From Actinomycetales bacterium (GTDB lineage Bacteria; Actinomycetota; Actinomycetes; JAJZTN01), in assembly GCA_051960855.1 (NCBI GenBank), contig JBQCDV010000207.1, positions 146-64,145 of the forward strand: a stretch of DNA of 64,000 nucleotides. Direction: 5' to 3'. Shown here piece by piece: positions 28,045 through 44,988 of this stretch. The position numbers were made by a program, and so were the translations under genes. The notes beneath the pieces were generated by a model. The model did not search any database and had not been told where the DNA came from. It saw only the letters and a program-made list of their open reading frames with translations. The stretch's first letter is position 1, and the number at the start of each line of letters is the position of its first letter.

Positions 28045-29088
28045 GTGACGGCACAGACGGCGACAGGACACATCCCGGCGAGCCCGGCAGCAGGTCCTGA
28101 TCGACCGAGGGTCCGCCTGCGTCGGGGACTGCGGGTGGTCGAGCGCGGCGAGGACGTCGTCGAGCTCGGTTCTGGACCCGGCGCCGTCGTGCTGCGCGGC
28201 CTCACCGCCGAGCAGCGGCAGGTGCTGCGAAGCCTCGAGCTGTCGGCTCTCACCCCCGACGAGATCAGTCGCCCGCTGTGGGCGCTCCTCGACGACGCCG
28301 ACCTGCTCGAGGACGCGGGGATGGTCGCGCGTCAGCTCGCTGAGCTGCCGCTGTCCGCCGCCGAGAGAGCTCAGCTCGGTCCCGACCTGGTGGCCGCCGG
28401 CCTGACCTCCACTCCCGCCGACGGCGGGGTGTCGGTCATACGGGCCCGCCGCGCCGCGGTCATCGAGATCCGGGGGCTGGGCCGCGTCGGCGCCGTCCTG
28501 GCCAACCTGCTGCGAGGGTCAGGGGTGGGCACCGTCCGAGGAGCCGACGACGACGTCGTGACCAACACCGACGTCGCCCCCGGTGGCCACCAGGACAGCG
28601 ACGTTGGAGAGGGGCGGCTGCGGCTGCTCCAGCCCGCAGTGGGTTCCCCCTCGCCTCACCTCGTCGTCGTCGTCGAGGACGGCGCCTCGCGTCGACTGGC
28701 GTGCGAGGAACTCGTCCGCGCCAGCCAACCCCACCTGATCGTGTCCGCGTCGCTGCTCTCGGCCGTCGTCGGTCCTCTCGTGCTTCCCGGCGCCACCGCG
28801 TGCCGCCGCTGCGTCGACTGCGCTCGCGGCGACCGCGACCGCGAGTGGGCTGCTGTCGCGGCCTCGGAGGAACGACTGGCGCCCTCGCCGCCGCCCGTCC
28901 TGCTGGCCGTGGCAGCCGCGGCGGTGGCGGCCGGGGAGGTCCTGGCGTGGGTCGAGGGGCGGACCTGCCCGAGCGTCAACGCCACCCTCGAACTCGGCCC
29001 GACGCTGCTCGCCGCCCGCAGGAGCTGGACGACTCACCCCCGCTGCGGCTGCCGATGGTCCGTAGCGGAGGGACAATGGACCGTGTGA
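28045..29088 (+). CDS. ThiF/E1-like domain protein (hypothetical)
   Basis: Rossmann-like RGLGRVGAVLANLLRGSGVGTV and a downstream CRRCVDC...CGC cysteine cluster. The assignment is weak. Confidence 0.45.
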   Translation: MTAQTATGHIPASPAAGPDRPRVRLRRGLRVVERGEDVVELGSGPGAVVLRGLTAEQRQVLRSLELSALTPDEISRPLWALLDDADLLEDAGMVARQLAELPLSAAERAQLGPDLVAAGLTSTPADGGVSVIRARRAAVIEIRGLGRVGAVLANLLRGSGVGTVRGADDDVVTNTDVAPGGHQDSDVGEGRLRLLQPAVGSPSPHLVVVVEDGASRRLACEELVRASQPHLIVSASLLSAVVGPLVLPGATACRRCVDCARGDRDREWAAVAASEERLAPSPPPVLLAVAAAAVAAGEVLAWVEGRTCPSVNATLELGPTLLAARRSWTTHPRCGCRWSVAEGQWTV

Positions 29089-30416
29089 GCGACGTGCCCC
29101 GCAAGGCGGTGACCCGCGGCATCAAGCTGGCGTCCCTTCCCCTGGGTTTCGCCGGGCGCGCCACCGTCGGCCTGGGCAAGCGCATCGGGGGTCGTCCCGC
29201 CGAGATCGTCGCCGCCGAGATCCAGGCGCGCACCGCCGAGCAGATCTTCCGCGTCCTGGGCGAGCTCAAGGGCGGCGCGATGAAGTTCGGCCAGGCCATG
29301 AGCGTGTTCGAGGCTGCGCTCCCCGAGGAGGTCGCGGGCCCCTACCGCGCCACCCTGACCAAGCTGCAGGAGGCAGCGCCGCCGCTGCCCGCGCGTGCCG
29401 TCCACCAGGTGCTCTCCGAGCAGCTCGGCCCGGAGTGGCGCCAGCTGTTCGAGAGTTTCGATGACAAGCCGGCGGCGGCCGCCTCGATCGGGCAGGTGCA
29501 CCGCGCGGTCTGGCATGACGGGCGCGCGGTGGCGGTCAAGGTCCAGTACCCCGGTGCCGGCGAGGCGCTGCTCGGCGACCTCGCACAGATCTCGCGCCTG
29601 GCCCGCGTCTTCGGATCCCTTGCCCCCGGCCTCGACATCAAGCCGCTGCTGGCCGAGCTGCGCGAGCGGGTGGCCGAGGAGCTGGACTACGAGCTGGAGG
29701 CAGAGGCGCAGCAGCGGTGCGCCGAGGTCTACGACGCGGACCCTGACATCGCCGTGCCGCACGTCGTCCACTCCAGCGAGCGCGTACTGGTGACCGAGTG
29801 GCTGGAAGGCACGCCGCTCTCGCGGATCATCGCCGAGGGCACTCAGGACGAGCGCAACCTCGGCGGCCGGCTCCTGGTCCGCTTCCTCTTCAGCGGGCCG
29901 CAGCGCGCCGGGCTGCTGCATGCCGACCCGCATCCCGGCAACTTCCGGATCCTCGAGGACGGCCGCCTCGGCGTGCTCGACTTCGGCGCCGTCAACCGGC
30001 TGCCCGACGGCCTGCCCGAGCCCATCGGTCCACTGCTCGCCCTCGCAATCGACGGGCAGGCCGAGGCCGTGCTGGACGGCCTCCAGGCGCTGGGCTTCGT
30101 CAAGCCCGACGTCCGCCTCGACGCCCAGCGGCTGCTCGACTACCTCTCGCCGCTTCTCGAGCCGGCGGTCGTCGAGGAGTTCCACTTCAACCGCGCCTGG
30201 ATGCGAGAGCAGGCCCTGCGCGTCGGCGACCCCCGCTCCCCCGCCTACACGGTTGGCACCCAGCTCAACCTGCCGCCGGAGTACCTGCTGATCCACCGCG
30301 TCACCATGGGGGCTATCGGCATCCTGTGCCAGCTCGAGGCGATGGCTCCCTTCCGGCAGGAGCTGCTCGACTGGGTCCCGGGATTCGCGGAGACCTCCGA
30401 GCAACTAGCCGGCTGA
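29076..30416 (+). CDS. ABC1/UbiB-family atypical protein kinase
   Basis: ABC1 kinase motifs are present (AAASIGQVHRAVWHDGRAVAVKVQYPG, LLHADPHPGNF, VLDFGAV). Confidence 0.8.
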   Translation: MDRVSDVPRKAVTRGIKLASLPLGFAGRATVGLGKRIGGRPAEIVAAEIQARTAEQIFRVLGELKGGAMKFGQAMSVFEAALPEEVAGPYRATLTKLQEAAPPLPARAVHQVLSEQLGPEWRQLFESFDDKPAAAASIGQVHRAVWHDGRAVAVKVQYPGAGEALLGDLAQISRLARVFGSLAPGLDIKPLLAELRERVAEELDYELEAEAQQRCAEVYDADPDIAVPHVVHSSERVLVTEWLEGTPLSRIIAEGTQDERNLGGRLLVRFLFSGPQRAGLLHADPHPGNFRILEDGRLGVLDFGAVNRLPDGLPEPIGPLLALAIDGQAEAVLDGLQALGFVKPDVRLDAQRLLDYLSPLLEPAVVEEFHFNRAWMREQALRVGDPRSPAYTVGTQLNLPPEYLLIHRVTMGAIGILCQLEAMAPFRQELLDWVPGFAETSEQLAG

Positions 30417-30432: not shown

Positions 30433-30636
30433 TCACCACCAGGCCTGGTCGAGCCGGCCTTCGATGCTGCGCAGGTGCTCCCGGGTGCACGCCGGGCACA
30501 GCAGATCCTGCCGTCCCGGCTGGTCGCGCAGGACGCTCCACGCGTGCAGCGCGAGCAGAGCCGGCCGATCGGACTCGCTCACCTGCTGGGTCTCGGGCGG
30601 CTCGGCGGCGCCGCATCGGGCGCAGGTGGCGACCAT
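30433..30636 (-). CDS. Small Cys4 zinc-ribbon protein (hypothetical)
   Basis: 67 aa with two CxxC pairs (CARCG...CPAC). A ribosome-binding site GGAAGGA lies upstream of the ATG. Confidence 0.4.
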   Translation of the reverse strand: MVATCARCGAAEPPETQQVSESDRPALLALHAWSVLRDQPGRQDLLCPACTREHLRSIEGRLDQAWW

Positions 30637-30715
30637 GCCCCCATCCTTCCCTGGCAGAGACGACAGCGGGCGCGGACGGACGCCGGCAGGAGTGCCGCCG
30701 GTCCGCCCGCGCCCG

Positions 30716-30742
30716 GCAGGTCACAGGGGGCAGGTCACAAGG
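30716..30742. repeat. Direct repeat GGCAGGTCACA x2 (3-bp spacer) in the intergenic region upstream of the Cys4 small ORF
   Basis: Direct reading (ggcaggtcacagggggcaggtcacaag). Confidence 0.6.
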
Positions 30743-30758
30743 GCCGGTCCGATCTCGC

Positions 30759-31028
30759 TCAGTACATGCTCGCCGCACTCAGGGCACGACGGGCACGAGC
30801 ACTGGCGGTCTCGGCTCGGCGGACTGCTCGCTTGGCGACAAGCAGGCGCCGGGCCTGGCGACTTCGCTCCGCTTCCCGCAGTCGTGACTGCATATTGGCG
30901 CGGGCGAGGTCCTCGTGCAGAAGCTGGTGCATGGCTGTACTCCGGTCTTGGTAGCCCGTCGACGGGACGTCGCGGGCGGTGGCAACGGGAAAGGGGTGGA
31001 GGGACAGAGAGGGCAGCAGGAGGCTCAT
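30759..31028 (-). CDS. Hypothetical protein translationally coupled to whiB7
   Basis: An ATGA overlap links the whiB7 stop and this ORF's ATG at 31028-31025. The product is a 90-aa charged, coil-like protein. Codon bias is moderate. Confidence 0.3.
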   Translation of the reverse strand: MSLLLPSLSLHPFPVATARDVPSTGYQDRSTAMHQLLHEDLARANMQSRLREAERSRQARRLLVAKRAVRRAETASARARRALSAASMY

Positions 31029-31303
31029 GCCGCCACCTCGGTCTTGCGCGGGCGCCCGCGGGGGCGCTTGCGGGGGACGACGACGCCCTGGTTGAACAGC
31101 TCGCCGCCCCAGACGCCCCACGGCTCCTGCCGCTGAAGCGCGCCCAGCAGGCAGGCGTCAACAGCAGGGCACGTACGGCACAGGGCCTTGGCGAACTCAA
31201 CGTCGTCGGGGGTCTCGGCGAAGAAGAGCTCCGGGTCGTAGCTGCGACACGGGAGTCCGTCCTCGATGCGTGATAGCTCGTCGCACAGAGCTGCGAGCTG
31301 CAC
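31025..31303 (-). CDS. whiB7: WhiB7-like transcriptional regulator (WhiB family with C-terminal AT-hook)
   Basis: The four Fe-S cysteines (CRSYDPELFF...CRTCPAVDAC), the GVWGG turn and the C-terminal AT-hook RPRGRPRK are all present. The start is taken at GTG 31303, 8 nt after AGGAGGTGA. An alternative GTG at 31312 overlaps the ribosome-binding site. Confidence 0.8.
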   Translation of the reverse strand: MQLAALCDELSRIEDGLPCRSYDPELFFAETPDDVEFAKALCRTCPAVDACLLGALQRQEPWGVWGGELFNQGVVVPRKRPRGRPRKTEVAA

Positions 31304-31420
31304 GGCGGTCACCTCCTGCAGGTGGGTTGTCGGGGCTGGTTCGGTCTCGGTCGAACCGGCTGGCTGCCGGATCGTCGGCGATGGATCCGGGAGCGCTGCC
31401 CTCGTGCCGGCCAGAGAAGG

Positions 31421-31470
31421 GGCCGGACAAACAACGAGGCCGCGGATCCCGAGTCGGGTTCCGCGGCCTG
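31421..31470 (-). terminator. Intrinsic terminator/attenuator between the uORF and whiB7
   Basis: On the minus strand, GGCCGCGGAACCCGA-C-UCGGGAUCCGCGGCC forms an about-20-bp stem with one mismatch. It is followed by CUCGUUGUUUGUCC. Confidence 0.65.
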
Positions 31471-31492
31471 GGCCTGCAGGTCTGAGAGGTCT

Positions 31493-31706
31493 CTAGACCG
31501 GAGGACTCCAGGTGCGAACACCCGGGTCGAACTGCGGGGCATCGGTGAAACGGATGCCCGCGGGCGCGCCGGTGAGAGGCGCGACGACAGGAGCCACAAA
31601 GGCGCCAGTGCTGGCGACGCAGTAGACCTTCACGCCGGAGGCGACACGAGTCGCGGCGGCAGCCATCAGCTGCGAACGCTGAGCGGTGGAAATCGTCGTC
31701 GACATT
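31493..31706 (-). CDS. whiB7 leader peptide / upstream ORF (71 codons)
   Basis: The ATG at 31706 is preceded by a perfect AGGAGGTGA ribosome-binding site. The ORF ends 24 nt before a strong terminator hairpin, and the peptide is Ala/Val-rich. Its position matches uORF-controlled attenuation of whiB7. Confidence 0.5.
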
Positions 31707-31776
31707 GCGTCACCTCCTAGGTCGTGGATGTCGGCTTGCCAACCGAGCATGGTCCGGCGCGGTGCCGGTGAGAAGG

Positions 31777-31830
31777 AGAGTAGGCCCTGGCCGTTGTCAG
31801 CGGCAACCATATTTTTCGACAGTTACTCGA
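31777..31830 (-). promoter_or_regulatory. Putative whiB7 promoter: AT-rich box (AGTAACTGTCGAAAAATATGG) abutting -35 TTGCCG, 18-bp spacer, -10 TACTCT
   Basis: The only AT-rich stretch in a high-GC neighbourhood lies immediately 5' of a sigma-A-like -35. This matches the known WhiB7 autoregulatory architecture, in which the AT-hook binds an AT-rich site next to -35. Confidence 0.5.
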
Positions 31831-31847
31831 TCGAGATCTTGTGGAGA

Positions 31848-33953
31848 TTACGAGGCTGTCGTCCCGGCGACGAGCGCGAGGACGTCCTCGCCGAACTTCT
31901 CCAGCTTCGCCGCTCCCACTCCAGACACCGCGGACAGCGCACACCGGTCCGCGGGCCGACGCTCGGCGATGGCCAGCAGCGTCGCGTCGGTGAAGACCAC
32001 GAAGGCGGGCACGCTGGCGGCCTTGGCCGTGGCGGTACGCCATTCCCGCAGCCGCTCCAGCAGCGCGAGGTCGACGTCGCCGGGGCACTGCGGGCAGCGG
32101 CCGAGCTTGCGGGAGACCCCGTCGGGCAGCAGCGCGCCGCACGACCGGCAGGTGGCCGGACGCCGTTCGACAGTCGAGCGCGAACGTCGCCCGCGCGCGG
32201 CCCCCGTGGCGCCTGGGCGCGGCCGCGACTCAGACTCCGACTCCGACTCCGGCAGCAGCGGCGCCAGGAACCGGCTGGGGCGGCGGTTGGCGGGACCACC
32301 CGGGGTGCGAGCGGTCGTCCAGCTCAGCTGGAGCCGGCGTCGCGCCCGCGTGACACCGACGTAGAGCAGCCGCCGCTCCTCCTCGATCGCCGCAGCGGTC
32401 TGCGCGTGAGAGATCGGCAGCAGCCCTTCGCCCACTCCCACGAGGTAGACCTCGTCCCACTCCAGGCCCTTCGCGGCGTGCAGGCTGGCGAGTGTGACGC
32501 CCTCGACAGCGGGCGCGTGCGCGCTCGCGGCGCGCTCGGCCAGCTCTGCGACGTAGTCGGCGAACGTCGCGGCCGGAGCTGCGGCCTGCAGCTCCTCGGC
32601 CAGGCGCACCAGGGCGGACAGCGACTCCCACCGCTCCCGAGCCGGGCCCGCCGCTGGCGGCTCATCCGCCGACCAGCCCGACGACGAGAGCACGTCGCGG
32701 ACGGCGGCGACCAGCGACGGCCCCTCTGGCGCCGTGGCGCCCCGGGCGGCGCCGCGCAGCAGGACCAGAGCCTGGCGCACCTCGGGCCGCTCCCAGAAGC
32801 GTTCGGTGCCGCGCAGCACAAACGGCACGTTGACGTCGGTGAGGGCCTCTTCGAGGCTCTGGGACTGGGCGTTGGTCCGGAAGAGCACGGCGACCTGCGA
32901 GGCCGGGACCCCCTCGGCGACGCGTCGTGCGATGTCGGCCGCTACCCCCCGGGCCTCGGCGACCTCGTCGGCGAAGGACAGCACGCGCGGCTCGGGTCCG
33001 TCGGCAACGACGCTGCGCAGCGCCACCCCACCGTGCTGCCGGCTCGGCAGCACCGCGTTGGCCGCGGCCACGATCTGCGGCGTGCAGCGGTAGCTGCGGA
33101 CCAGTCGCACGACCTGTGCCCCCGGGTGACGCTCCTGGAAACCGAGCAGATATCTCGGGTCGGCTCCGGCGAAGGAGTAGATCGTCTGGCCCGGATCGCC
33201 CACCACGGTGAGGTCGTGGCGGCCGGCCAGCCACTGCTCGAGCAGCTGCTGCTGCAGGGCCGAGACGTCCTGGTACTCGTCCACGACGAAGGTGGTGTAC
33301 TGCGCCGTCACCTCCCGGCGGACGTCGGGATAGTCGGCGAGCAGCCCGATCGTGAGCAGCAGGACGTCCTCGAAGTCCATGAGGCCGCGATCGCGCTTGA
33401 CCTCCTCGTAGCCCTCGAGAACCGTCTGCACCCGGGGCAGCTCCCAGCCGGGCGGAGCGGTGCGCCGAGCTGCGGCGGCCGCCTCCGCGTAGCCCTCGAC
33501 CGGCACGAGCGCGGACTTGCGCCACTCGACCTCGGCGGCGAGATCGCGCAGGACGGTGCGGTCGCTGCGCAGCGCCGCACGCGAGCATGCCTCTGCGAGG
33601 ACCGGGAGTTTGGAGTCCACCAGGCGTGGGGGCGGCGAGCCAACCGCCCGCGGCCAGAAGAACTGCAGCTGGCGCAGCGCCGCCGCGTGGAAGGTGCGGG
33701 CCTGGACGCCTCCGACATCCATCGCCCGCAGCCGGCCGCGCATCTCGCCAGCAGCGCGGGCGGTGAACGTGACCGCGAGCACGGAGGTCGGAGCAACCTG
33801 GTCGGTGAGGACGGCGTGGGCGATGCGAGCGGTAATCGCGCGGGTCTTGCCCGTGCCGGCGCCGGCGAGCACGCACAGCGGGCCGGCGGGCGCGGTCGCC
33901 ACCTGCCGCTGCTCGGGGTCCAGGCTGGCGAGCAGGTCCTGCGACGGCGTCAC
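31848..33953 (-). CDS. uvrD2: ATP-dependent DNA helicase UvrD2 (UvrD motor + tetracysteine + HRDC)
   Basis: Walker A AGAGTGKT and UvrD motifs are present. The C-terminus has CRSCG...CPQCPGD followed by an HRDC-like domain (VPAFVVFTDATLLAIAE). With a GTG start at 33953 the product is 701 aa, like Mtb UvrD2. Confidence 0.8.
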   Translation of the reverse strand: MTPSQDLLASLDPEQRQVATAPAGPLCVLAGAGTGKTRAITARIAHAVLTDQVAPTSVLAVTFTARAAGEMRGRLRAMDVGGVQARTFHAAALRQLQFFWPRAVGSPPPRLVDSKLPVLAEACSRAALRSDRTVLRDLAAEVEWRKSALVPVEGYAEAAAAARRTAPPGWELPRVQTVLEGYEEVKRDRGLMDFEDVLLLTIGLLADYPDVRREVTAQYTTFVVDEYQDVSALQQQLLEQWLAGRHDLTVVGDPGQTIYSFAGADPRYLLGFQERHPGAQVVRLVRSYRCTPQIVAAANAVLPSRQHGGVALRSVVADGPEPRVLSFADEVAEARGVAADIARRVAEGVPASQVAVLFRTNAQSQSLEEALTDVNVPFVLRGTERFWERPEVRQALVLLRGAARGATAPEGPSLVAAVRDVLSSSGWSADEPPAAGPARERWESLSALVRLAEELQAAAPAATFADYVAELAERAASAHAPAVEGVTLASLHAAKGLEWDEVYLVGVGEGLLPISHAQTAAAIEEERRLLYVGVTRARRRLQLSWTTARTPGGPANRRPSRFLAPLLPESESESESRPRPGATGAARGRRSRSTVERRPATCRSCGALLPDGVSRKLGRCPQCPGDVDLALLERLREWRTATAKAASVPAFVVFTDATLLAIAERRPADRCALSAVSGVGAAKLEKFGEDVLALVAGTTAS

Positions 33954-34135
33954 TCCGCCAGTCTCCCAGCCCGCGTCCGCGCCCTCCGCGGTTATCCCCT
34001 GCCATGCTGGCGGGAAGAGAGGTCGTGACGGGGGGGCGGAGCCCGCCGGTGCCGGATTAGAACGCCGGTCGCGCGGGTTGCTCTCCGGTGACAGCAACGG
34101 GCGCGGCAGTCGCCGCCTGAGCAGAGGAGCGTCCT

Positions 34136-34379: not shown

Positions 34380-35417
34380 CTAGCGCCAGGTCCCGTCTGC
34401 CGTTAGCGGATCCCCCGCCCACGCCTCGATGAGGCGGCGCGCAATGGAGATCGACGGGGGCAGCCGCAGCTCGCCGGAGGCGAGTGCGGCCTCGAGCTCG
34501 CCGTGGTCGAACCACCGGGCCTCGGCGATCTCGACCCCGTCGACGCGCGGCTCCTCCCCCTCGACGCGGGCGACGAACCCGAGCATGAGTGAGGACGGGA
34601 ACGGCCACGGCTGGCTGCCGACGTAGCGGACCTCGCGGACCGTGAGGCCGACCTCCTCGGCCACCTCCCGAGCAACGGCTCGCTCCAGGCTCTCCCCCGG
34701 CTCGACAAAACCGGCCAGGGTCGAGAACCGTCGCTCCGGCCACGACGCCTGCCTGCCCAGGAGCAGCCGGTCGCTCTCGTCGACGACGGTCATGATCACT
34801 GCCGGGTCCGTGCGCGGATAGTGCTCCGTGGCGTCCTTCGGGCACCGGCGCACCGTCCCGGCCAGGACCGGCTCGGTGGGTGCGCCGCAGCGCGGGCAGT
34901 GGGTGTGGCTGCGGTGCCACGCCGCGAGCGCGACGGCATGCACGACCAGCCCCGCCTCCAGGTCATCGAGCACCGCCCCCACGTCGCGCAGGCCCGCCCA
35001 GCGCACGTGGCCGGCCGCCACTCCGGGAAACTCCCGAACGACGCTGCTCGCCGCCGCGCCGTCGTCGACACCCGATCCGTCCGCGGTCGTCGCGGCCCTG
35101 GCCGCCACACCACCGGCGTCGAGGTCCAGCGCGGCGAAGTAGGTGGTCTCGCCCATCCGCCCGAGGTAGGCGACGACCACGCCGGGCGATCCCGCTCCGT
35201 CTGAGACCGAAAGCGGCACCTGCGTCGCCGGCAGGAGGACCAGCCGGCCGTCGTCGTCCACCGGGACCTGGCCGTCGTGAACGACGAGGACACGCCCGGT
35301 GGCGGCCCACTGGCGTGCGAGCCACTCCGGGTCGCCACGGTGGTCGGCGTCGCGGTCGACGACCGCCCGGGAGAGCGCGAGGTCGATCAGCGGCTGCTGG
35401 TCATCGATGGAGGGCAC
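34380..35417 (-). CDS. nudC: NAD(+) diphosphatase NudC (NADH pyrophosphatase)
   Basis: Zinc ribbon CPRCGAPTEP...RRCP followed by a Nudix box (GFVEPGESLERAVAREVAEEVGL). Confidence 0.85.
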   Translation of the reverse strand: MPSIDDQQPLIDLALSRAVVDRDADHRGDPEWLARQWAATGRVLVVHDGQVPVDDDGRLVLLPATQVPLSVSDGAGSPGVVVAYLGRMGETTYFAALDLDAGGVAARAATTADGSGVDDGAAASSVVREFPGVAAGHVRWAGLRDVGAVLDDLEAGLVVHAVALAAWHRSHTHCPRCGAPTEPVLAGTVRRCPKDATEHYPRTDPAVIMTVVDESDRLLLGRQASWPERRFSTLAGFVEPGESLERAVAREVAEEVGLTVREVRYVGSQPWPFPSSLMLGFVARVEGEEPRVDGVEIAEARWFDHGELEAALASGELRLPPSISIARRLIEAWAGDPLTADGTWR

Positions 35418-37113: not shown

Positions 37114-40100
37114 TCAGGTGCGAGCTGCTCCGGAGAAGAGCGCCTTGAGCTCGCTGACGTCGGGCAGCTCCGTCGGCCGCCACGTCTCGCCAGTCGCCGC
37201 GTAGTAGAGCGCCACGCGCACCGTCTCCATGGGAACGCCGTGCAGTCGTGACCACGCGAGCCGGTAGAGCGCGAGCTGTGCCACGTGCGACTTTTCGTCG
37301 CGATGACGCGAACCAGTCTTCCAGTCAACGATCTCCACCTCGCCGGCTCGGCCCGGCACCGCGAAGACAGCGTCGATACGGCCACGCACGACCACGTCGC
37401 CCATCGGTGTCTCGAAGGGCACCTCGACGCCCAGCGGCAGCCGCGTCGCCCACTCGCTCGCGAGGAAGGTCGATTTGAGCTGCTCGAGTTCGGGCTCGGG
37501 CACGAGCTCGTCGAGCTCGTCGAGATCCAGCAGTGCCGCATCAGCGAAGTGCTGCTCGACCCACGCATGGAAGGACGTGCCCCGGCGGGCGCCCCGGGCC
37601 GGTGGCCGTGGGACGGGCCGCCGCAGCTCGAGCAGGAACGACTGTGGGTCGTCGCGGTAGTCGACGACGGCCGACACCGACAGCGACGGCGGCAGCCGCC
37701 TGTCCGCACCTGCGCTGCCCTCGCCACGTTCGGCGCGTTCCCGCAGCAGCGCGTCGAGGTCCGCGGTCCACCTCGTCTCTGGCGGCTGTGGGGGCGCGTC
37801 TATGTCGCCGGCGAGCGCTTCTCGAGCGGCGAGGACGCGCTGGGCAGCGGCCTGCCGTCCGGCCCGGCGGGGACCGAGGGGATCCAGGGGCCAGGAGACG
37901 CGGCGCTGTCCCAGCTCCTCGGGGCGGGGCGACTCGTCGTCGACCCAGACCGCCACCTCGACCCCGGGCACGGCGATGCTCGTCGCCTGCGCCGTGGCGT
38001 CCTCAGTCGGCCGTGCCGCGACCGAGGCCATCTCCTCGAGGAAGCGTGACACCGTGCGGGGCCGTTTCGCTTCGCTCCAGAGGTGGGCGCTGGCTAGCAG
38101 CACCTCGCGCGCCCTGGTGACCGCGACATAGGCCAGGCGCCGCTCGTCGCGGACCTGGTGCGCCCCACTGTCAGAGCGGAACGTGGCGAGGGCGTCCCGG
38201 AGCTCCTCCTGCGACTCGGCCTCGCGCCAGCGCCACTCCGGAAGCTCTCCGGCGTCACCGCGCAGCGGGTAGGGCAGCGGTCCGAGGCCGACGAGCCAGC
38301 CTCCGTCGGTGTCCTTCGCCGCAGGGAACTGGCCCTCGACCATTCCGGGCACCGCCACGACGTCCCATTCCAGCCCCTTGGCCGCGTGCACGGTGAGGAC
38401 CTGCACGGCCTCCGGGTCGACGGTCACCTCACCTGGCTGCAGCCCGCGCTCCTGCTCGACGGCCACGTCGAGCCATGCGAGAAACGCCGTCAGCTCGTGG
38501 GCAGCCCCGCCCGTCCCGCCAGTCGTTCCGCCGCCGCTGGATGCGGCCGCGTCGAAGTCGGCGGCGGTCTGCAGGAACGCGTCGAGGTGGACGCGGGCGT
38601 CGTCGGGAGGCACACCCGGCCGGGCCGCAACCTCGATGTCGAGGTCCAGCGCCCGCTCGCACTCCAGCACCAGCTCCGCCAGGAGCAGGGTCGTGCTCAA
38701 CCGCGAGCGCAGCGCCGCGACGGTGCGCGCCACGTCGCGCAGCCGGCCGCGCGCCTCCTCGCTGAGGGCAATCGCCCCCGGAAGCGTCGACACGCGCAGC
38801 GCCTCCAGCGCGTCGACGATGGACAGCGGCTCCGCCGGCTCCGACGCGGCGAGAGGGGGCTCTCCGTCGATTCCCGGGCTGTCGCCCTGGGCTGCGCCGA
38901 CCTGCCTCGCCGCGCCATGGGTCACCGCCGTGGTCAGCTGCCGGGCGAGACGACCCAGGACATCGAGATCGCGCGGGGCCATGCGCACGCGTGGCCCACT
39001 CAGGAGGCGGATGAGCGCGTCACCGCGGGTCGGGTCGGCGACCACCTGCAGCAGCGCGACGAGCTCGTCGACCTCCGGCACCGACAGCAGGCCGCCGAGA
39101 CCGACGACCTGCACGGGAAGCCCGCGGGCCTCGAGAGCGTCGACGACCGCAGGGAACTGGCTGCGGGCCCGGCACAGAACGGCGCAGCTGCGATGGCCGC
39201 CGTCGGGAAGTGCGCGCAGCTGCTCGAGCTGGACCGCTACCCAGGCAGCCTCGTCGAGGTCGGTCAGCGCACGAGCCAGGCGGACGAGACCCGCTCCAGC
39301 TCCGGGCCGCGGCTGCAGCTCGGGAAGTTCCGCCTCAGCGCGCAGCTCCGCGCTGACGACATTCGCGATGTCGAGGATGGCGGCGTCGTTGCGCCAGCTG
39401 GTCGAGAGCGTGACGACCGGTGCCGGCTCCCCGCCCTCCTCCGGCGCGGTGCGGAAGACCTGGGGAAAGCGCAGCAGAGCCCCGGCGCTCGCACCGCGCC
39501 ATCCGTAGATCGACTGGCTCGGGTCGCCCACGGCGGTGACGGGGTGACCCTGACCGAAGAGCGAGGACAGCAGCAGCAGCTGGGCGTGGCTGGTGTCCTG
39601 GAACTCGTCCAGCAGCACCACCCGATGGCGCGCCCTCGCGGCGGCGACCACTTCCGGGAAGCGGGAGGCGAGCTGGGCGGCCAGGGCCATCTGGTCGCCG
39701 AAGTCGAGCAGCCCGCGGTGGCGCTTGACCTCCGCGTAGCGCCGCACCAGCGGAATCAGCTCGCGCCGCCCACGCAGCACGCTCAGCGCCTTCGCCACGT
39801 CCGCGAACGGAGCGCCGGGCGCGGCCTGCCCGACCTTGCGCGGCAGCACCTCGACCTCCCTCAGCAGCTGCTCGAGCCAGCCCTCGACGTCCTCGAGGGC
39901 GACCAGGTGCTCCGCGCACTCGGCTGCGAGGGCCAGCACGGCGTCGATGACAGTGCTGACGGCGGCCGTGACCGAGGGCAGATCGTCGGTCCAGTGCTCG
40001 ACGACGCCAGCTGCCAGCTGCCAGCCGGCGGCCTCGGTGAGCAACCGGGCGTCCGGCTCGACACTGAGGCGCAGGCCGTGCTCCTTGACCAGCGCGCCGG

Positions 40101-40527
40101 CGAAGCCGTGGTAGGTCGAGACCTCGGCACCGGCAGCGAGGCCGTCGGCGGCGGCGAGCCCGAGACGCCCCAGCCCCCGAAGTCGGCGACGGATCCGGGC
40201 GCTGAGCTCGGTGGCGGCCTTGCGGGTGAACGTCAGCCCGAGGACGGCGTCAGGCTCGACGAGGCCGTTGGCGACCAGCCACACGACACGCCCGGCCATC
40301 GTCTCGGTCTTGCCGGAGCCCGCGCCCGCGACCACGAGGGCCGGGCCGAGTCCGAGCTCGATGACGGCGACCTGCTCGTCGGTGGGAGCGGGGAGCCCGA
40401 GGGCGGCTGCCACGGCCTCCGCACTCCAGAGGGTGCCGTCTGTGCCATCCCTGCCACCACCGCTACTGCCACCGCTGCTGCCGTTGCTGCCGCCGGCCGC
40501 GGCGTGCCACCTCGCGTCGGCGGTCAT
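37114..40527 (-). CDS. adnB: Helicase-nuclease AdnB-like (UvrD-like motor + RecB-type nuclease)
   Basis: Walker A AGAGSGKTE and UvrD motifs are present. The C-terminus has a PD-(D/E)XK nuclease (IDAVFAVPG...EIVDWKTG...QLALYRLAW). The ATG at 40527 overlaps the adnA stop. Confidence 0.75.
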   Translation of the reverse strand: MTADARWHAAAGGSNGSSGGSSGGGRDGTDGTLWSAEAVAAALGLPAPTDEQVAVIELGLGPALVVAGAGSGKTETMAGRVVWLVANGLVEPDAVLGLTFTRKAATELSARIRRRLRGLGRLGLAAADGLAAGAEVSTYHGFAGALVKEHGLRLSVEPDARLLTEAAGWQLAAGVVEHWTDDLPSVTAAVSTVIDAVLALAAECAEHLVALEDVEGWLEQLLREVEVLPRKVGQAAPGAPFADVAKALSVLRGRRELIPLVRRYAEVKRHRGLLDFGDQMALAAQLASRFPEVVAAARARHRVVLLDEFQDTSHAQLLLLSSLFGQGHPVTAVGDPSQSIYGWRGASAGALLRFPQVFRTAPEEGGEPAPVVTLSTSWRNDAAILDIANVVSAELRAEAELPELQPRPGAGAGLVRLARALTDLDEAAWVAVQLEQLRALPDGGHRSCAVLCRARSQFPAVVDALEARGLPVQVVGLGGLLSVPEVDELVALLQVVADPTRGDALIRLLSGPRVRMAPRDLDVLGRLARQLTTAVTHGAARQVGAAQGDSPGIDGEPPLAASEPAEPLSIVDALEALRVSTLPGAIALSEEARGRLRDVARTVAALRSRLSTTLLLAELVLECERALDLDIEVAARPGVPPDDARVHLDAFLQTAADFDAAASSGGGTTGGTGGAAHELTAFLAWLDVAVEQERGLQPGEVTVDPEAVQVLTVHAAKGLEWDVVAVPGMVEGQFPAAKDTDGGWLVGLGPLPYPLRGDAGELPEWRWREAESQEELRDALATFRSDSGAHQVRDERRLAYVAVTRAREVLLASAHLWSEAKRPRTVSRFLEEMASVAARPTEDATAQATSIAVPGVEVAVWVDDESPRPEELGQRRVSWPLDPLGPRRAGRQAAAQRVLAAREALAGDIDAPPQPPETRWTADLDALLRERAERGEGSAGADRRLPPSLSVSAVVDYRDDPQSFLLELRRPVPRPPARGARRGTSFHAWVEQHFADAALLDLDELDELVPEPELEQLKSTFLASEWATRLPLGVEVPFETPMGDVVVRGRIDAVFAVPGRAGEVEIVDWKTGSRHRDEKSHVAQLALYRLAWSRLHGVPMETVRVALYYAATGETWRPTELPDVSELKALFSGAART

Positions 40528-43500
40528 CTGGTGCGCTGCCCGTCGAGAGGGCACGAACGGCGCACCGGGCAGGTGCGGCAGTGCGTGCCCTGGGCTGCCT
40601 CGAACTCCGCCGCCGCCATGCCCTCCGCGGCGGTCGTCAGCATGGTCTCGGCCCACAACGGGTCCTCGGAGTCCGCCAGTGCCTCCTGCCGCTGCTCGTC
40701 GACACGCTTGGTAGCGCCGAGCTGGACCAGCAGGCCGCCGCCCGCTCCCGCGTCATGGCCCTCGACGCCACCGCGCTCGATCGCCAGCTGGTAGACCCCC
40801 AGCTGCGGGTGCTGCGGCAGCTCCTCGGGCCGCGGCTTGTGCTTGCCCGTCTTGAGGTCCACGACGACCAGGCGACCATCGCCGTCGCGCTCGAGCCGGT
40901 CGGCGCGGCCCACGACGCGCACCGGGTGGGTCTCGGAGGCGATGACGACCTCGACCTCCACCTCGACGCCGACGAGAGCACGGGAGGTGCTGCGCTGGTA
41001 GTCCGCCAGCTTGCCGAGCATCTCCTCGGCCTGCTGGCGCACGAGTCGGGAGCGCCAGCTCGTCGGCAGGTCGAGCTCGTGCCACCGCTCGTCGAGCCGG
41101 GCGAGCATCGCCGCCAGATCGCCGCCCTGCGGCAGCTCGGCGGCGATCTCGTGCACGAGCGTGCCGAGCGTCTGCGACGTGCTGTCAGCGCGTCGCCCTC
41201 CGCTGGTCTCGAGGTGCCAGCGCAGCGGGCAGGTGAGGAAGGACTCGACGCGGGAGGGCGACACCCGCACCTCCTCCCCCGGCGACCGCAGCGGCTCCAC
41301 CGAGCTCAGCGGCAGGAGCCCGTGCCAGCTCCGGGGGTCCGCGCCGCGGATGCCGAGGGCGGCGAGCCGCGCGAGCTCGCGAGCCGCCGCTTCCGCCTCG
41401 TCCTCGGGTCCGGAGACCACGGCCTGCCGCAGCTCGGCCACGACGGCGGGCAGGGTGAGCTGGCGCGGGGCGACCGTGCAGCGTCGTTCGTCGGTTGCGC
41501 CTTCGGGGTCGAGGACGTCGAGGAAGACCGATGGCTCGTGGTCGTCGTCAGCAACCGCCGTGACCAGGAGGTCGCATCGGGGCCGGGTGACCGCCAGGTA
41601 GAGCAGGCGCAGCTCCTCGCGGCGCAGGGCCGCCACCGCGTCGCGCGGCGCGAGCGCCGGACGCCCGGCGAGGACGTCGACCAGGCGGTCGGCGCCCAGC
41701 AACGTCCCCCGGACCCGCAGGTCGGGCCACACCCCTTCCTGCATCCCAGCGAGGGCCACGACGTCCCACTCGCGCCCGGCGGCTTCGTGGACGGTAAGCA
41801 CGTCGACCTGCTCGCTGGCCACGCCCGTCGCACGCAGGGTGTCGGCCCGGACCTGGGCGGAGGAGACCGTCTCGATCAGCTCGGCGACACCGGCCCCGCC
41901 GTCGGCGGCACGCGCGGCGAGGGCGAACAGTGCCATCACCGCATCCAGGTCGCGGTCGGCACGGGCGCCGTCCATCCCGCCGCGCAGCGCCCGCTCCTGC
42001 CACCGACCCGCGACGCCACTGGCGTCCCACACCGCCCACAGCAGGGACTCCGCGCTGAGATCGTCAGCGCGAGCGGCCCTGCGGCCGGCAGCGAGGATCC
42101 GTCGCAGCCGCACCTCGGGCGCCCGGTCTCGGCGGTCGCCGCCAGCCCACCAGCTCGCGTCCTGCGCCGCCGGGAGCCGGGGCAGCAGCCGCCGCAGCTG
42201 CACCGGGTCCACCCCGACCAGAGGCCCGGCGAGCAGGGCGCCCAGCGCGGCGGTGTCGAGAAGCTCGGGCTGCAGGCAGACCTGCATCGCGGTCACCAGG
42301 GCGGCGACGGCGCGCTCCTGAGCCAGCGGAAGGTCGCCTGCAGTGCCGCGCACCGGTACCCCCGCGCTGGCGAGCAGGCGACGCAGCTCCTCCGCGCGGC
42401 CGCGGGTGCGGGTGAGCACGGCCAGCCGCGACCACGGCGTGCCGCGGTGCAGGTGCTCCTGGCGCAGCCGCGTGGCGAGGAAGGTCGCCTCCCGCGCCGG
42501 AGAAGCCAGGACGTGGACCTCAGCGCCGCTCACGTGCTCCCTGCTGACCTCCCCGGCCGCAGCGACCTTCCCGGCCGAGTGGAGCTCTGCGGCTGGGTCG
42601 ACCTCCCCGGCCGCCGGCCGCAGGACGCGTCGGTGCGTGCCGCTTCCGGGCAGCAGGCGGCCGACCCGCTCGGCCGCGCTCAGGAGTGAGGCGCCGCGAC
42701 GCCAGCTCGTGGTGAGGACCGTCGTCTCCGCCGCGCGGCCGCCCGGGCGACGGAACACGTCGGGGAACTCCGCCAGGCGTTGGACGTCAGCGCCGCGGAA
42801 CGTCTGCACCGTGACGTCGGGGTCACCGGCCACGACGACGTCAGCGTGTCGGGCCAGCAGGAGCAGCAGTCGCTCGTGGTCTGGGTCGGCCTCGTGGTAG
42901 TCGTCGACGAGCACCAGCCGCCACGGGAGCGCGACCTCGCCAGTCTCGAGCACGGCCACGGCGGCCGCGATGAGGCCTGCTGGGTCGCGCGCTCCCGGCT
43001 CCCGCAGCTCCAGGACGTCGAGGTACTCCCGCCAGAGCCCCCCGGCCGCCACCCAGGCGGGCTCGTCGTGCCGCAGACCCAGCTCACGCAGGTCCTCCGG
43101 CTCCAGGCCACGCTCGGTCGCCCGCGCGAAGAGGTCGCGCAGCTGGGTGCGGAAGGTCCGGGTCGGCAGCGCGTCGGCGCACTCGGCGGGCCACACCACG
43201 GCGCCGCCCTCGCCTGCCCGGTGCCCCTCGAGCAGCTCGCGCAGCATGCGGTCCTGCTCGGGGGCGGACACCAGCCGGGGCGCGGGCGCTCCCGTGAGCA
43301 GCGCGTGGCGGCGCAGCAGCCCGAAGGCGAGCGAGTGCATGGTGCGAGCGGCGGGCTCGCGCATGGTGCGTCGCAGCCTGCGGGAGAGCCGCTCGCGCAG
43401 GTCGTCCGCGCGACGTCGCGAGGCGGCCAGCACCAGCAGCTCGTCGGGGTCGAGCCCAGCGGCCACCCGACGCGCGGCGAGCTCGACGAGGAGGCTGGTC

Positions 43501-43661
43501 TTGCCTGTGCCAGGAGCGCCGATGATGCGGTGCGCGCCGACGCCCGCGGGGAGGCAGGCGACGATCTCGGCGGGATCGAAGAGCCCGAGCTGGGCGGCCT
43601 CGGAGGCAGCGGCGGGGGCGGCGGTGCCGGCGGTGCTGGCAGGAGGAGCAGTCGTCGTCAT
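40524..43661 (-). CDS. adnA: Helicase-nuclease AdnA-like subunit
   Basis: GAPGTGKT Walker A is present. The C-terminus carries a RecB-like nuclease (VVVDLKTGKHKP...QLGVYQLAIE) and a cysteine cluster (C..C....C). The start is taken at ATG 43661. Confidence 0.75.
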   Translation of the reverse strand: MTTTAPPASTAGTAAPAAASEAAQLGLFDPAEIVACLPAGVGAHRIIGAPGTGKTSLLVELAARRVAAGLDPDELLVLAASRRRADDLRERLSRRLRRTMREPAARTMHSLAFGLLRRHALLTGAPAPRLVSAPEQDRMLRELLEGHRAGEGGAVVWPAECADALPTRTFRTQLRDLFARATERGLEPEDLRELGLRHDEPAWVAAGGLWREYLDVLELREPGARDPAGLIAAAVAVLETGEVALPWRLVLVDDYHEADPDHERLLLLLARHADVVVAGDPDVTVQTFRGADVQRLAEFPDVFRRPGGRAAETTVLTTSWRRGASLLSAAERVGRLLPGSGTHRRVLRPAAGEVDPAAELHSAGKVAAAGEVSREHVSGAEVHVLASPAREATFLATRLRQEHLHRGTPWSRLAVLTRTRGRAEELRRLLASAGVPVRGTAGDLPLAQERAVAALVTAMQVCLQPELLDTAALGALLAGPLVGVDPVQLRRLLPRLPAAQDASWWAGGDRRDRAPEVRLRRILAAGRRAARADDLSAESLLWAVWDASGVAGRWQERALRGGMDGARADRDLDAVMALFALAARAADGGAGVAELIETVSSAQVRADTLRATGVASEQVDVLTVHEAAGREWDVVALAGMQEGVWPDLRVRGTLLGADRLVDVLAGRPALAPRDAVAALRREELRLLYLAVTRPRCDLLVTAVADDDHEPSVFLDVLDPEGATDERRCTVAPRQLTLPAVVAELRQAVVSGPEDEAEAAARELARLAALGIRGADPRSWHGLLPLSSVEPLRSPGEEVRVSPSRVESFLTCPLRWHLETSGGRRADSTSQTLGTLVHEIAAELPQGGDLAAMLARLDERWHELDLPTSWRSRLVRQQAEEMLGKLADYQRSTSRALVGVEVEVEVVIASETHPVRVVGRADRLERDGDGRLVVVDLKTGKHKPRPEELPQHPQLGVYQLAIERGGVEGHDAGAGGGLLVQLGATKRVDEQRQEALADSEDPLWAETMLTTAAEGMAAAEFEAAQGTHCRTCPVRRSCPLDGQRTR

Positions 43662-43670
43662 GTCCCTGGC

Positions 43671-43692
43671 ATTCGACCACGGCCCACTGACA
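43671..43692 (-). promoter_or_regulatory. Candidate DNA-damage (RecA-independent, PafBC-type) promoter motif TGTCAGTG-N8-TCGAAT immediately upstream of the adnA ATG. It would give a near-leaderless transcript
   Basis: TGTCAGTG matches the actinobacterial RecA-NDp core tTGTCRgtg. The -10-like hexamer is only 9 nt from the ATG. Confidence 0.3.
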
Positions 43693-43704
43693 GAGTCCGG
43701 AGAC

Positions 43705-43735
43705 GACACGGGGCCACCCCGGGAAGGGGTGGCCC
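43705..43735 (-). terminator. Terminator-like hairpin after moeZ (GGGGCCACCCC-GGGAA-GGGGTGGCCCC)
   Basis: An 11-bp perfect stem lies 40 nt downstream of the moeZ stop on the minus strand. Confidence 0.45.
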
Positions 43736-43773
43736 CGTCGATGGCTCGCGGTGTGAGGCGGCGGCTGTGCCTG

Positions 43774-44988
43774 TCAGTAGGCGGGCAGCGAGGGGTCGAC
43801 CTGGTTGACCCAGGCCACGACGCCCCCGCCAACGTGGACAGCATCGGTGAAGCCCGCACCCTTCACCACAGCGAGCGCCTCGGCCGAGCGACCCCCGGAT
43901 TTGCAGTGCAGGACCACCTGCTTGTCCTGCGGCAGCTTGCCGAGGGCCTCGCCTGAGAGGAACTCGCCCTTGGGGATGAGCACCGAACCAGGGATCCGGA
44001 CGATCTCGAACTCGTGCGGCTCGCGGACGTCGACGAGGACGAAGTCGCGCTCGCCACGCTCCCGCTCGGCCAGCATCTGCTCGAGGTCCTTGACCGAGAT
44101 GGTCGCGTCCCGCGCGGCGTCGGCAGCCTCCGCAGAGATGGTGCCGCAGAAGGCCTCGTAGTCGATGAGCTCCGTCACCGTCGGGTTGGTGCCGCAGATG
44201 GCGCACTCGGGGTCCTTGCGGACCTTGATGTCGCGGTAGGTCATCTCGAGGGCGTCGTAGACCTTGAGGCGCCCGACCAGCGGCTCACCGATGCCCGCGA
44301 TGAGCTTGATGGCCTCGGTGACCTGGATCGAGCCGATCGAGGCGCACAGCACCCCGAGCACGCCACCCTCCGCGCACGACGGGACCATGCCGGGCGGCGG
44401 GGGCTCCGGGTAGAGGCAGCGGTAGCAGGGGCCGTACTCCGCCCAGAAGACCGACGCCTGCCCGTCGAAGCGGAAGATCGAGCCCCAGACATAGGGCTTG
44501 CCGAGCAGGACACAGGCGTCGTTGACGAGGTAGCGCGTCGCGAAGTTGTCGGTGCCGTCGATGATGAGGTCGTAGCCGGAGAAGATGTCGAGCGCGTTGC
44601 TGGACTCCAGCCGCTCCTCGTGCAGGACGACCTCGACCAGCGGGTTGATCTCGCGGATCGAGTCGCGTGCCGAGGCTGCCTTGGACCGGCCCACGTCGCT
44701 CTGGCCGTGGATGACCTGGCGCTGCAGGTTGGACTCGTCGACGACGTCGAAGTCGATGATGCCGAGAGTGCCCACGCCAGCAGCGGCGAGGTAGAGCAGC
44801 GCCGGTGAGCCGAGGCCGCCAGCGCCGATGACGAGGACCTTGGCGTTCTTCAGGCGCTTCTGCCCGTCCATCCCGACGTCGGGAATGATCAGGTGGCGCG
44901 AGTAGCGGCGGACCTCGTCGACAGTGAGCTCAGCGGCCGGCTCAACGAGCGGCGGGAGGGACACGGCAGGGAGGGACACAGCAGTCAC
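43774..44988 (-). CDS. moeZ: Molybdopterin-synthase adenylyltransferase MoeZ/MoeB with C-terminal rhodanese domain
   Basis: ThiF/MoeB core (VLVIGAGGLGSP, dual CxxC) plus a C-terminal rhodanese active site (CKSGGRS). Confidence 0.85.
   Translation of the reverse strand: MTAVSLPAVSLPPLVEPAAELTVDEVRRYSRHLIIPDVGMDGQKRLKNAKVLVIGAGGLGSPALLYLAAAGVGTLGIIDFDVVDESNLQRQVIHGQSDVGRSKAASARDSIREINPLVEVVLHEERLESSNALDIFSGYDLIIDGTDNFATRYLVNDACVLLGKPYVWGSIFRFDGQASVFWAEYGPCYRCLYPEPPPPGMVPSCAEGGVLGVLCASIGSIQVTEAIKLIAGIGEPLVGRLKVYDALEMTYRDIKVRKDPECAICGTNPTVTELIDYEAFCGTISAEAADAARDATISVKDLEQMLAERERGERDFVLVDVREPHEFEIVRIPGSVLIPKGEFLSGEALGKLPQDKQVVLHCKSGGRSAEALAVVKGAGFTDAVHVGGGVVAWVNQVDPSLPAY

Follow-up and report, generated by a model that had tools for sequence, protein, structure and literature searches.

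A probable ribosome-dependent attenuator in the whiB7 leader of an uncultured actinomycete

Introduction

The question raised by the locus examined here is whether the DNA between the stop codon of a uvrD-type helicase gene and a whiB7 gene in an uncultured actinomycete holds an ordinary small gene with its terminator or the regulatory leader of whiB7 itself. The locus lies on contig JBQCDV010000207.1 of the Actinomycetales bacterium assembly GCA_051960855.1, within a stretch of 64,000 nucleotides referred to below as the window; all coordinates are those of the whole 64-kb window, and the leader elements are all on its minus strand. In the wblC leader of Streptomyces and the whiB7 leader of mycobacteria, translation of an open reading frame that lies upstream (uORF) favors a terminator, and stalling favors an antiterminator (PMC10274678, PMC11550727, bioRxiv 10.1101/2025.10.10.681568). 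This mechanism of uORF attenuation has been described as conserved in actinomycetes (PMC11550727, PMC10274678). A preliminary description of the window, made from the letters of the DNA alone, had claimed a module of the same logic in a different actinobacterial lineage, with a stem of about 20 bp and an unusually long, Ala/Val-rich uORF.

The data obtained in this study support the core of that description. The module was judged, with a probability of about 0.85, to be the native regulatory leader of a whiB7/wblC orthologue, acting as a ribosome-dependent transcription attenuator combined with positive autoregulation. As judged from sequence comparison, the leader is homologous to the whiB7/wblC leaders of other actinomycetes and not only alike in logic, because the core of its hairpin recurs in 157 loci, a covariance model built by leaving the window out still finds it, and the hairpin covaries. 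The claims of an unusually long uORF, of Ala/Val-richness, and of a 20-bp stem did not hold. The lineage is indeed a different one, being that of an uncultured member of the Actinomycetes known from a metagenome-assembled genome (MAG), but this gives no new insight into a mechanism already described as conserved.

Results

The predicted terminator hairpin is shared with other whiB7/wblC leaders

The leader was compared with 80 genome loci (75 Streptomyces species plus MAGs of Pseudonocardiales and Actinomycetota), 80 soil-metagenome loci, and two named genomes; this set includes neither Mycobacterium nor S. coelicolor itself. In the window, a predicted Rho-independent terminator lies between the uORF and whiB7 (Table 1). 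A hairpin and U-tract had been described after the uORF stop and are present, but the stem has 14 bp, the gap from the stop is 23 nt rather than 24 nt, and the U-tract is interrupted. The hairpin pattern occurred once in the 64 kb, against an expectation of 0. Among the 161 related loci for which 120 nt or more of upstream sequence was available, 157 carried its core, GGCCGCGGA...TCCGCGGCC; these include Streptomyces (75 wblC loci), Carbonactinospora, Motilibacter, and soil metagenomes. The core with a T-rich tail preceded whiB7 in 80/80 genome loci. A uORF led by a Shine-Dalgarno (SD) sequence was present in 137 loci, with its stop codon 19 to 31 nt (mode, 23 nt) before the hairpin; a terminating ribosome would therefore stand beside the hairpin and not on it.

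Covariation in the hairpin and the antiterminator was assessed in an 85-sequence alignment with 500 shuffles and with controls in which the partner strand was slid. Twelve hairpin columns were invariant. The stem was paired in 94.5% of cells, values that 0/500 shuffles reached, and pairing went down to 25 to 52% when the partner strand was slid. Changes on both sides were seen at 7 of the 14 pairs, for example GGCCACGGA/TCCGTGGCC and GCGAACCC/GGGTTCGC. A covariance search across actinobacteria had been proposed in the preliminary description. The leave-one-out model, built without the window or near-identical strains, matched 31424-31531(-) over its full length with 77.4 bits (E ~4e-19) and also matched the leaders of Carbonactinospora (84 bits) and Motilibacter (64.7 bits). 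Its only other match in the 64 kb was the palindromic reverse of the hairpin (35 bits, opposite strand). No Rfam 15 family reached its gathering score anywhere in the window, and only noise was obtained at E values up to 10 in 30500-32500.

The hairpin is more conserved than a generic terminator needs to be, its 12 columns being invariant in the 85 leaders while the WhiB7 proteins are only 55 to 80% identical to that of the window. The near-invariant inverted repeat could thus serve mainly to be bound in a sequence-specific way, whether as the DNA operator of a dimeric regulator or as the RNA target of a protein, and not only as an intrinsic terminator. A symmetric site would keep symmetric changes too, and the outer arms are palindromic, as in the 35-bit match on the opposite strand. 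However, the T-tract is one-sided and always 3' on the sense strand, and the GU pairs found at five pair positions suit RNA and not a DNA palindrome. The loop varies freely in both length and sequence, and the slow drift of the arms is already explained by the two alternative partners of the 5' arm. In addition, Term-seq 3' ends are reported at the M. tuberculosis whiB7 leader (PMC13236596, Extended Data Fig. 6). A role mainly as a binding site was accordingly given a slim chance, and the hairpin is treated below as a predicted terminator.

The promoter aligns with Streptomyces wblC promoters

The AT-rich tract, the TTGCCG -35 hexamer that it touches, and the TACTCT -10 hexamer were found as described. 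With a GC content of 0.45 at 31800-31839, compared with 0.60 to 0.85 elsewhere within ~1 kb on either side, the tract is the only such drop in the region. The window sequence tcgaaaaaTatggTTGC is base-for-base in register with tcgaaaaaAtagtTTGC of Streptomyces wblC promoters (box plus TTGC), and the box itself aligned in register with tcgaaaaaatagtTTGC of the same promoters. In the relatives, TANNNT or ATAGGT follows 16 to 19 nt 3' of the -35. The whole pattern (GAAAW box, TTGNNN, 16 to 19 nt, TANNNT) was present in 83 of 121 unique relatives, where it lies 30 to 220 nt upstream of the uORF, and was absent from all control regions, which came from 500 to 700 nt upstream of the uORF start. Activation by WhiB7 depends on its AT-box (PMC3905903), and the AT-rich box directly upstream of the SigA-type -35 (31827-31777) is a predicted WhiB7 binding site.

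An inverted repeat, GTTGCCGCTGACAAC, at 31793-31807 overlaps the -35 hexamer and spacer of this promoter and is probably incidental. The scanner reported this repeat as a plus-strand terminator-like site, since on that strand the A-tract of the WhiB7 box appears as a run of T; the call is probably spurious.

The upstream reading frame is probably a leader and not a protein gene

The 71 codons of the preliminary description comprise 70 sense codons and a stop, and both the uORF and whiB7 are preceded by the same perfect ribosome-binding site, AGGAGGTGA. This sequence occurs three times in the 64-kb window, against 0.42 expected, and two of the three occurrences are these sites. From its SD and ATG, the uORF is predicted to be translated. 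Some automatic gene calls give a 105-amino-acid reading from ATG 31810. It was rejected because this codon falls inside the promoter box, upstream of the predicted transcription start, and lacks an SD. A further ATG in the same frame, at ~31750 and likewise without an SD, was considered unlikely as a start. When the whole leader was folded to minimum free energy, the SD of the uORF (GGAGGUGACGC) paired with GUGUCGCCUCC ~60 nt downstream, inside the uORF (31640-31720); on the basis of this one predicted fold, a helix masking the SD is possible.

Gene callers annotate the reading frame as a hypothetical protein, as in GCA_051953285.1, where the 70-amino-acid product is labelled 'MAG: hypothetical protein [Actinomycetes bacterium]'. 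Its third-position GC content is somewhat higher in frame (0.76) than in the other two frames (0.65), and a stop codon followed by a hairpin and a T-tract is also normal gene-end anatomy. These observations would suit an ordinary small protein gene with the hairpin as its terminator, in which case whiB7 would be transcribed from its own promoter further downstream, and there would be no attenuation. However, the peptide had no homologue among 5.8 billion proteins beyond its own near-identical cluster, no Pfam or NCBIfam match, and no paralogue within the window. A conserved stand-alone protein, which the preliminary description had named as an observation that would count against a leader, was thus not seen.

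Among 133 distinct relatives, the uORFs ranged from 43 to 164 codons (median, 105; outside Streptomyces, 87.5), and beyond their position, only the SD, the composition of residues 2 to 10, the C-terminal end, and the distance from the stop to the hairpin were kept. Residues 2 to 10 were enriched in Ile, Thr, Asn, and Ser (Ile, 19.8% versus 1.8% in the rest), whose codons are AU-rich, in very GC-rich genomes. The C terminus was almost always x-Pro-(Ala/Val)-stop, with DPA in 70 uORFs, PPV in 21, EPV in 8, and DPV in 6. The uORF of the window fits both patterns (MSTTISTAQ... and ...WSPPV). Nucleotides around the stop and the hairpin were far more conserved than the peptide. Furthermore, neither the GC profile nor the generic scan gave an AT-rich or promoter-like site between the hairpin and whiB7 from which the latter could be transcribed separately, and experiments in Streptomyces and mycobacteria have shown the orthologous arrangement to be an attenuator (PMC10274678, PMC11550727). 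An independent small gene is therefore regarded as extremely improbable.

A close strain, GCA_051953285.1 (locus L081; 98.3% identical overall), showed 0 differences across 31419-31931, the 513 nt that hold the promoter, uORF, and terminator, compared with 21 differences in the adjacent 1.2 kb of the helicase gene and 3 clustered just after the U-tract (31414-31418). At the rate of that strain, an estimated ~9 differences were expected (Poisson P ~1e-4). Hence, the leader appears to be under constraint in its nucleotide sequence, synonymous uORF sites included.

The uORF is not unusually long, because the median of the relatives is 105 codons and that of M. smegmatis has 83 amino acids. With uORFs shorter than 70 codons in only 7% of the 133 relatives, that of the window is on the short side for whiB7 leaders. 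Nor was it found to be enriched in Ala or Val. Ala accounted for 13/70 residues (18.6%), compared with an average of 14.5% over seven of the window's proteins (binomial P = 0.21), and Val for 12.9% compared with 9.9% (P = 0.25); the mean Ala content over the uORFs of the 133 relatives was 16.8%. The M. smegmatis uORF, by comparison, contains 24.1% Ala (bioRxiv 10.1101/2025.10.10.681568). Ala enrichment is a reported tendency of whiB7 uORFs (Poulton 2024) and no requirement of the mechanism.

An antiterminator is plausible in the window

When the leader was folded with the 3' arm of the terminator withheld, an alternative structure of -37.6 kcal/mol was obtained, in which the 5' arm is paired with a strand from the final 11 uORF codons. 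CGGGU-g-UUCGC (31524-31514) pairs with GCGGAACCCG (ACCCG/GCGGA, 31464-31455) and CCUGG (31512-31508) with CCAGG (31471-31467), and these helices enclose a small hairpin carrying the uORF stop codon. The stop-codon helix was 72.9% paired over the 85 leaders, with double changes at all 4 pairs. Folding gave the same three-helix topology for the window and for 7 diverse relatives (Streptomyces and MAGs), and the consensus of the three helices was paired in 69% of cells, compared with 65.9% after shuffling (0/500) and 27 to 57% when slid. Among the Streptomyces leaders (71 sequences), the strand that partners the 5' arm (UUCCGYGG) always ended 21 to 25 nt before the stop, with a median z of -2.6 versus shuffles, whereas the duplex signal was weak in 58 non-Streptomyces leaders (median z, -0.9). 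At one locus (L155), both arms (5', then 3') had changed together with the upstream mimic (GCGAACCC / GGGTTCGC / GGGTTCGC). This triple co-change and the topology of the family make an antiterminator in the window plausible.

Several observations weigh against an attenuator at this locus. The consensus antiterminator is only moderately above its controls. For the window taken alone, the best upstream partner of the 5' arm formed a duplex no better than shuffles (z = -0.23), and this duplex mapped elsewhere, to a CCGCGG palindrome 60 to 77 nt before the stop. The antiterminator of the window, when projected on the MAFFT alignment, was 54.7% paired compared with 53.6% after shuffling; this projection is uninformative because the register differs between hairpin subtypes. 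The U-tract is interrupted, and a simple terminator scanner did not call the hairpin at 31469-31437 because of the internal loop in its stem. A generic sigma-70 scan made no call at TTGCCG/TACTCT and is uninformative there because the hexamers are nonconsensus; the support for the promoter thus comes from homology. Finally, the GAAAW box as placed here lies 4 to 5 nt from the -35, compared with the 3 nt published for the GAAAWY box at WblC targets (PMC7157823).

The weakness of the U-tract bears in particular on whether control might be mainly translational or Rho-dependent, either by uncoupling of ribosome and RNA polymerase, which would expose Rho loading sites, or by leader pairing that masks the whiB7 SD. 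A 9-nt repeat, ACCTGCAGG, with a self-complementary core (CCTGCAGG), is found at 31481-31473 before the hairpin and at 31323-31315 over the first bases of the whiB7 SD, and the two copies could pair in read-through RNA, but the repeat may be due to chance. Under Rho control, stalling in the uORF should lower whiB7 expression, the opposite of the published behavior (PMC10274678), and the conservation of the hairpin with its T-tail in 157/161 loci is also at odds with control that bypasses it. Such control was therefore considered very improbable.

A model for the switch

Attenuation at the terminator, the preferred reading, would proceed as follows. Transcription would start near 31770 from the SigA-type promoter (TTGCCG, 18 nt, TACTCT), ~65 nt upstream of the uORF, and WhiB7 would boost its own promoter through binding of its AT-hook to the adjoining GAAAAATA box. 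A ribosome would load at the strong SD and translate the 70-codon uORF. On reaching the last codons and the stop, it would occupy or melt 31524-31508 and the stop-codon hairpin; from the size of a ribosome footprint, the base of the antiterminator would be covered by a ribosome at the stop codon and the 5' arm of the terminator would be left uncovered. The freed 5' arm would pair with the 3' arm, and the 14-bp hairpin and U-tract, 23 nt downstream, would end the transcript before whiB7. If the ribosome were slowed earlier in the uORF, by a ribosome-targeting drug or a shortage of charged tRNA, 31524-31508 would instead pair with the 5' arm to form the antiterminator, RNA polymerase would read on for ~130 nt into whiB7, and WhiB7 would amplify its own promoter. 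The expected response to antibiotics is drawn by analogy from published work on Streptomyces and mycobacteria.

The whiB7 gene and its neighborhood

The exact 92-amino-acid WhiB7 product is recorded in public assemblies. A 95-amino-acid reading from GTG 31312, as listed by an open reading frame (ORF) tool, starts inside the SD and corresponds to no product on record. The protein matched Pfam Whib (1.3e-14) and carries four Fe-S cysteines, read from the translation as C-X22-C-X2-C-X5-C, together with the EPW and GVWGG motifs of the SigA-binding domain (...QRQEPWGVWGGELF...). The C-terminal AT-hook, RPRGRPRK, had been described and was confirmed; the AT_hook match scored 17.7 bits against a cut-off of 17.4 over residues 82 to 93 of the 95-amino-acid reading. 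The Fe-S, SigA-binding, and AT-hook modules of WhiB7 have been described (PMC3905903). NCBIfam gave no match for WhiB7, as for the uORF and the ORF downstream.

In total, 7994 homologues of WhiB7 were found. Among the matches listed, the nearest named ones were from Carbonactinospora (75%), Vallicoccus and Motilibacter (73%), and Streptomyces/Kitasatospora (~70%); none of the 120 listed came from Mycobacterium. The exact WhiB7 and uORF products were both found in the NCBI MAG GCA_051953285.1 and a few Logan assemblies. The source lineage has no cultured member and lies outside both Streptomyces and Mycobacterium.

The surroundings of whiB7 follow the order UPF0182 protein, ABC1 kinase-like gene (opposite strand), whiB7, uvrD2-like helicase, nudC-like gene, and adnAB-like helicase-nucleases, and thus include a uvrD2 / whiB7 / ABC1 neighborhood (Table 1). 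The uvrD2 / whiB7 / ABC1 synteny is shared with M. tuberculosis, and the order of the whole block is the same as that of the M. tuberculosis Rv3193c-Rv3202c block.

An ORF of 89 amino acids at 30759-31028 (-) overlaps the stop codon of whiB7 (ATGA), an arrangement suggestive of translational coupling. In 89 of the 155 loci with enough sequence (74 Streptomyces and 15 others), a homologue follows directly downstream of whiB7/wblC, and the ORF is 43% identical to the coupled ORF of Carbonactinospora. Its conserved core is rich in Arg and Ala (LLHEALARAQ..RLREAER..RR..ARRA.RRAE), and no Pfam or NCBIfam match was obtained. A two-gene operon may join whiB7 to the gene of this conserved small protein.

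Table 1. Features of the whiB7 leader and of the conserved actinobacterial gene block (17706-43859) in which it lies
Feature	Position	Strand	Basis or remark
AT-rich WhiB7/WblC box AGTAACTGTCGAAAAATATGG, core GAAAAATA	31807..31827	-	Sequence, homology; directly 5' of -35
-35 hexamer TTGCCG	31801..31806	-	Read from sequence; TTGC conserved in relatives
-10 hexamer TACTCT (TANNNT)	31777..31782	-	Read from sequence; 18-nt spacer from -35
uORF SD AGGAGGTGA	31710..31718	-	4 nt before ATG 31705; ~60 nt 3' of -10
uORF leader peptide MSTTISTAQRSQLMAAAATRVASGVKVYCVASTGAFVAPVVAPLTGAPAGIRFTDAPQFDPGVRTWSPPV, 70 sense codons + TAG	31493..31705	-	ATG 31705, TAG 31495-31493
Predicted antiterminator 5' strand, CGGGU-g-UUCGC + CCUGG	31508..31524	-	Folding
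Small hairpin with uORF stop codon, GGUCUAGAGACC	31488..31499	-	Folding; enclosed by antiterminator helices
Predicted terminator hairpin AGGCCGCGGAaCCCGacuCGGGaUCCGCGGCCU, 14 bp	31437..31469	-	10 + 4 bp, 1 x 1 internal loop; dG -28.2 kcal/mol
Interrupted U-tract CGUUGUUUGU	31427..31436	-	Sequence; tails of relatives similarly T-rich
whiB7 SD AGGAGGTGA	31309..31317	-	5 nt before GTG 31303; ~110 nt past tail
whiB7 coding sequence, 92 amino acids, GTG 31303	31025..31303	-	Pfam Whib, AT_hook; product on record
UPF0182	17706-20726		Conserved block
ABC1 kinase-like	28701-30416	+	Conserved block
uvrD2-like helicase with HRDC domain	31848-34097	-	Conserved block
nudC-like NUDIX	34380-35417		Conserved block
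AdnAB-like helicase-nucleases (two)	37114-40656 and 40524-43859		Conserved block

Discussion

The closest counterpart of the leader is that of Streptomyces wblC, which has the AT-rich box and TTGC -35 in the same register, an SD-led uORF, a stop codon 20 to 24 nt before the hairpin, the same core (GGCCGCGGAaCCC...GGGaUCCGCGGCC) with a T-tail, and a homologous small ORF after whiB7. Folding suggests that the antiterminator topology is also shared, in that the uORF end and the 5' arm pair with each other and enclose the stop-codon hairpin. The two differ in that the uORFs of the 75 Streptomyces loci have 100 to 118 codons and end in WSDPA, compared with 70 codons and WSPPV in the window, and in that the Streptomyces antiterminator strand, UUCCGYGG:CCGCGGAA, is stronger (z ~-2.6) than the CGGGUgUUCGC of the window. 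The WhiB7 proteins are ~68 to 70% identical. For the wblC leader of S. coelicolor itself, uORF-mediated transcription attenuation was reportedly described by Lee, Lee & Roe in Mol Microbiol in 2022.

The whiB7 leaders of M. tuberculosis (Rv3197A) and M. smegmatis (Burian 2012/2013, Burian & Thompson 2018, Poulton 2024) resemble that of the window in their length and in combining a uORF with a Rho-independent terminator (PMC10274678). The classical leader-peptide attenuators of E. coli (trp, leu, and his) and the antibiotic-sensing leaders of the Term-seq class, such as lmo0919, vmlR, and the ARE-ABCF genes (PMC12421871), follow the same logic, in which the position of the ribosome on a leader ORF picks the terminator or the antiterminator. 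Their leader ORFs are short (3 to 30 codons) and rely on specific codons or arrest motifs, whereas the whiB7 uORF is long (43 to 164 codons) and variable in sequence, a general sensor of slow translation coupled to positive autoregulation.

Four constraints go beyond a model of some uORF plus a terminator/antiterminator pair: the almost invariant hairpin core, the fixed spacing of 19 to 31 nt, the nearly universal x-Pro-(Ala/Val)-stop end, and the AU-rich codons 2 to 10. They might indicate that the sensor is not a generic ORF and that its start and end are tuned, for example through elongation that is slow early on and termination that is slow at Pro-X-stop, so that the ribosome is kept at set places relative to the switch, or that the hairpin is also read by a sequence-specific factor. 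Either extension is considered unlikely; if one were true, the weak antiterminator of the window would matter less than the placement of the ribosome.

The locus is an ordinary copy of the known whiB7 control region, in an uncultured soil actinomycete, and the features claimed as unusual are not unusual. For annotation of the window, this means that the product annotated upstream of whiB7 as a 'hypothetical protein' is a leader peptide, that whiB7 starts at GTG 31303, and that the intergenic region is a regulatory leader. The class-wide sequence constraints of the leader exceed what the simple model requires and leave the known biology unchanged. Across many actinomycete lineages, the whiB7/wblC leader appears as one deeply conserved RNA element with an almost invariant terminator core. 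Rfam 15 gave no family match for this element, and with a curated covariance model, intrinsic-resistance switches of the whiB7 type could be flagged automatically during genome annotation.

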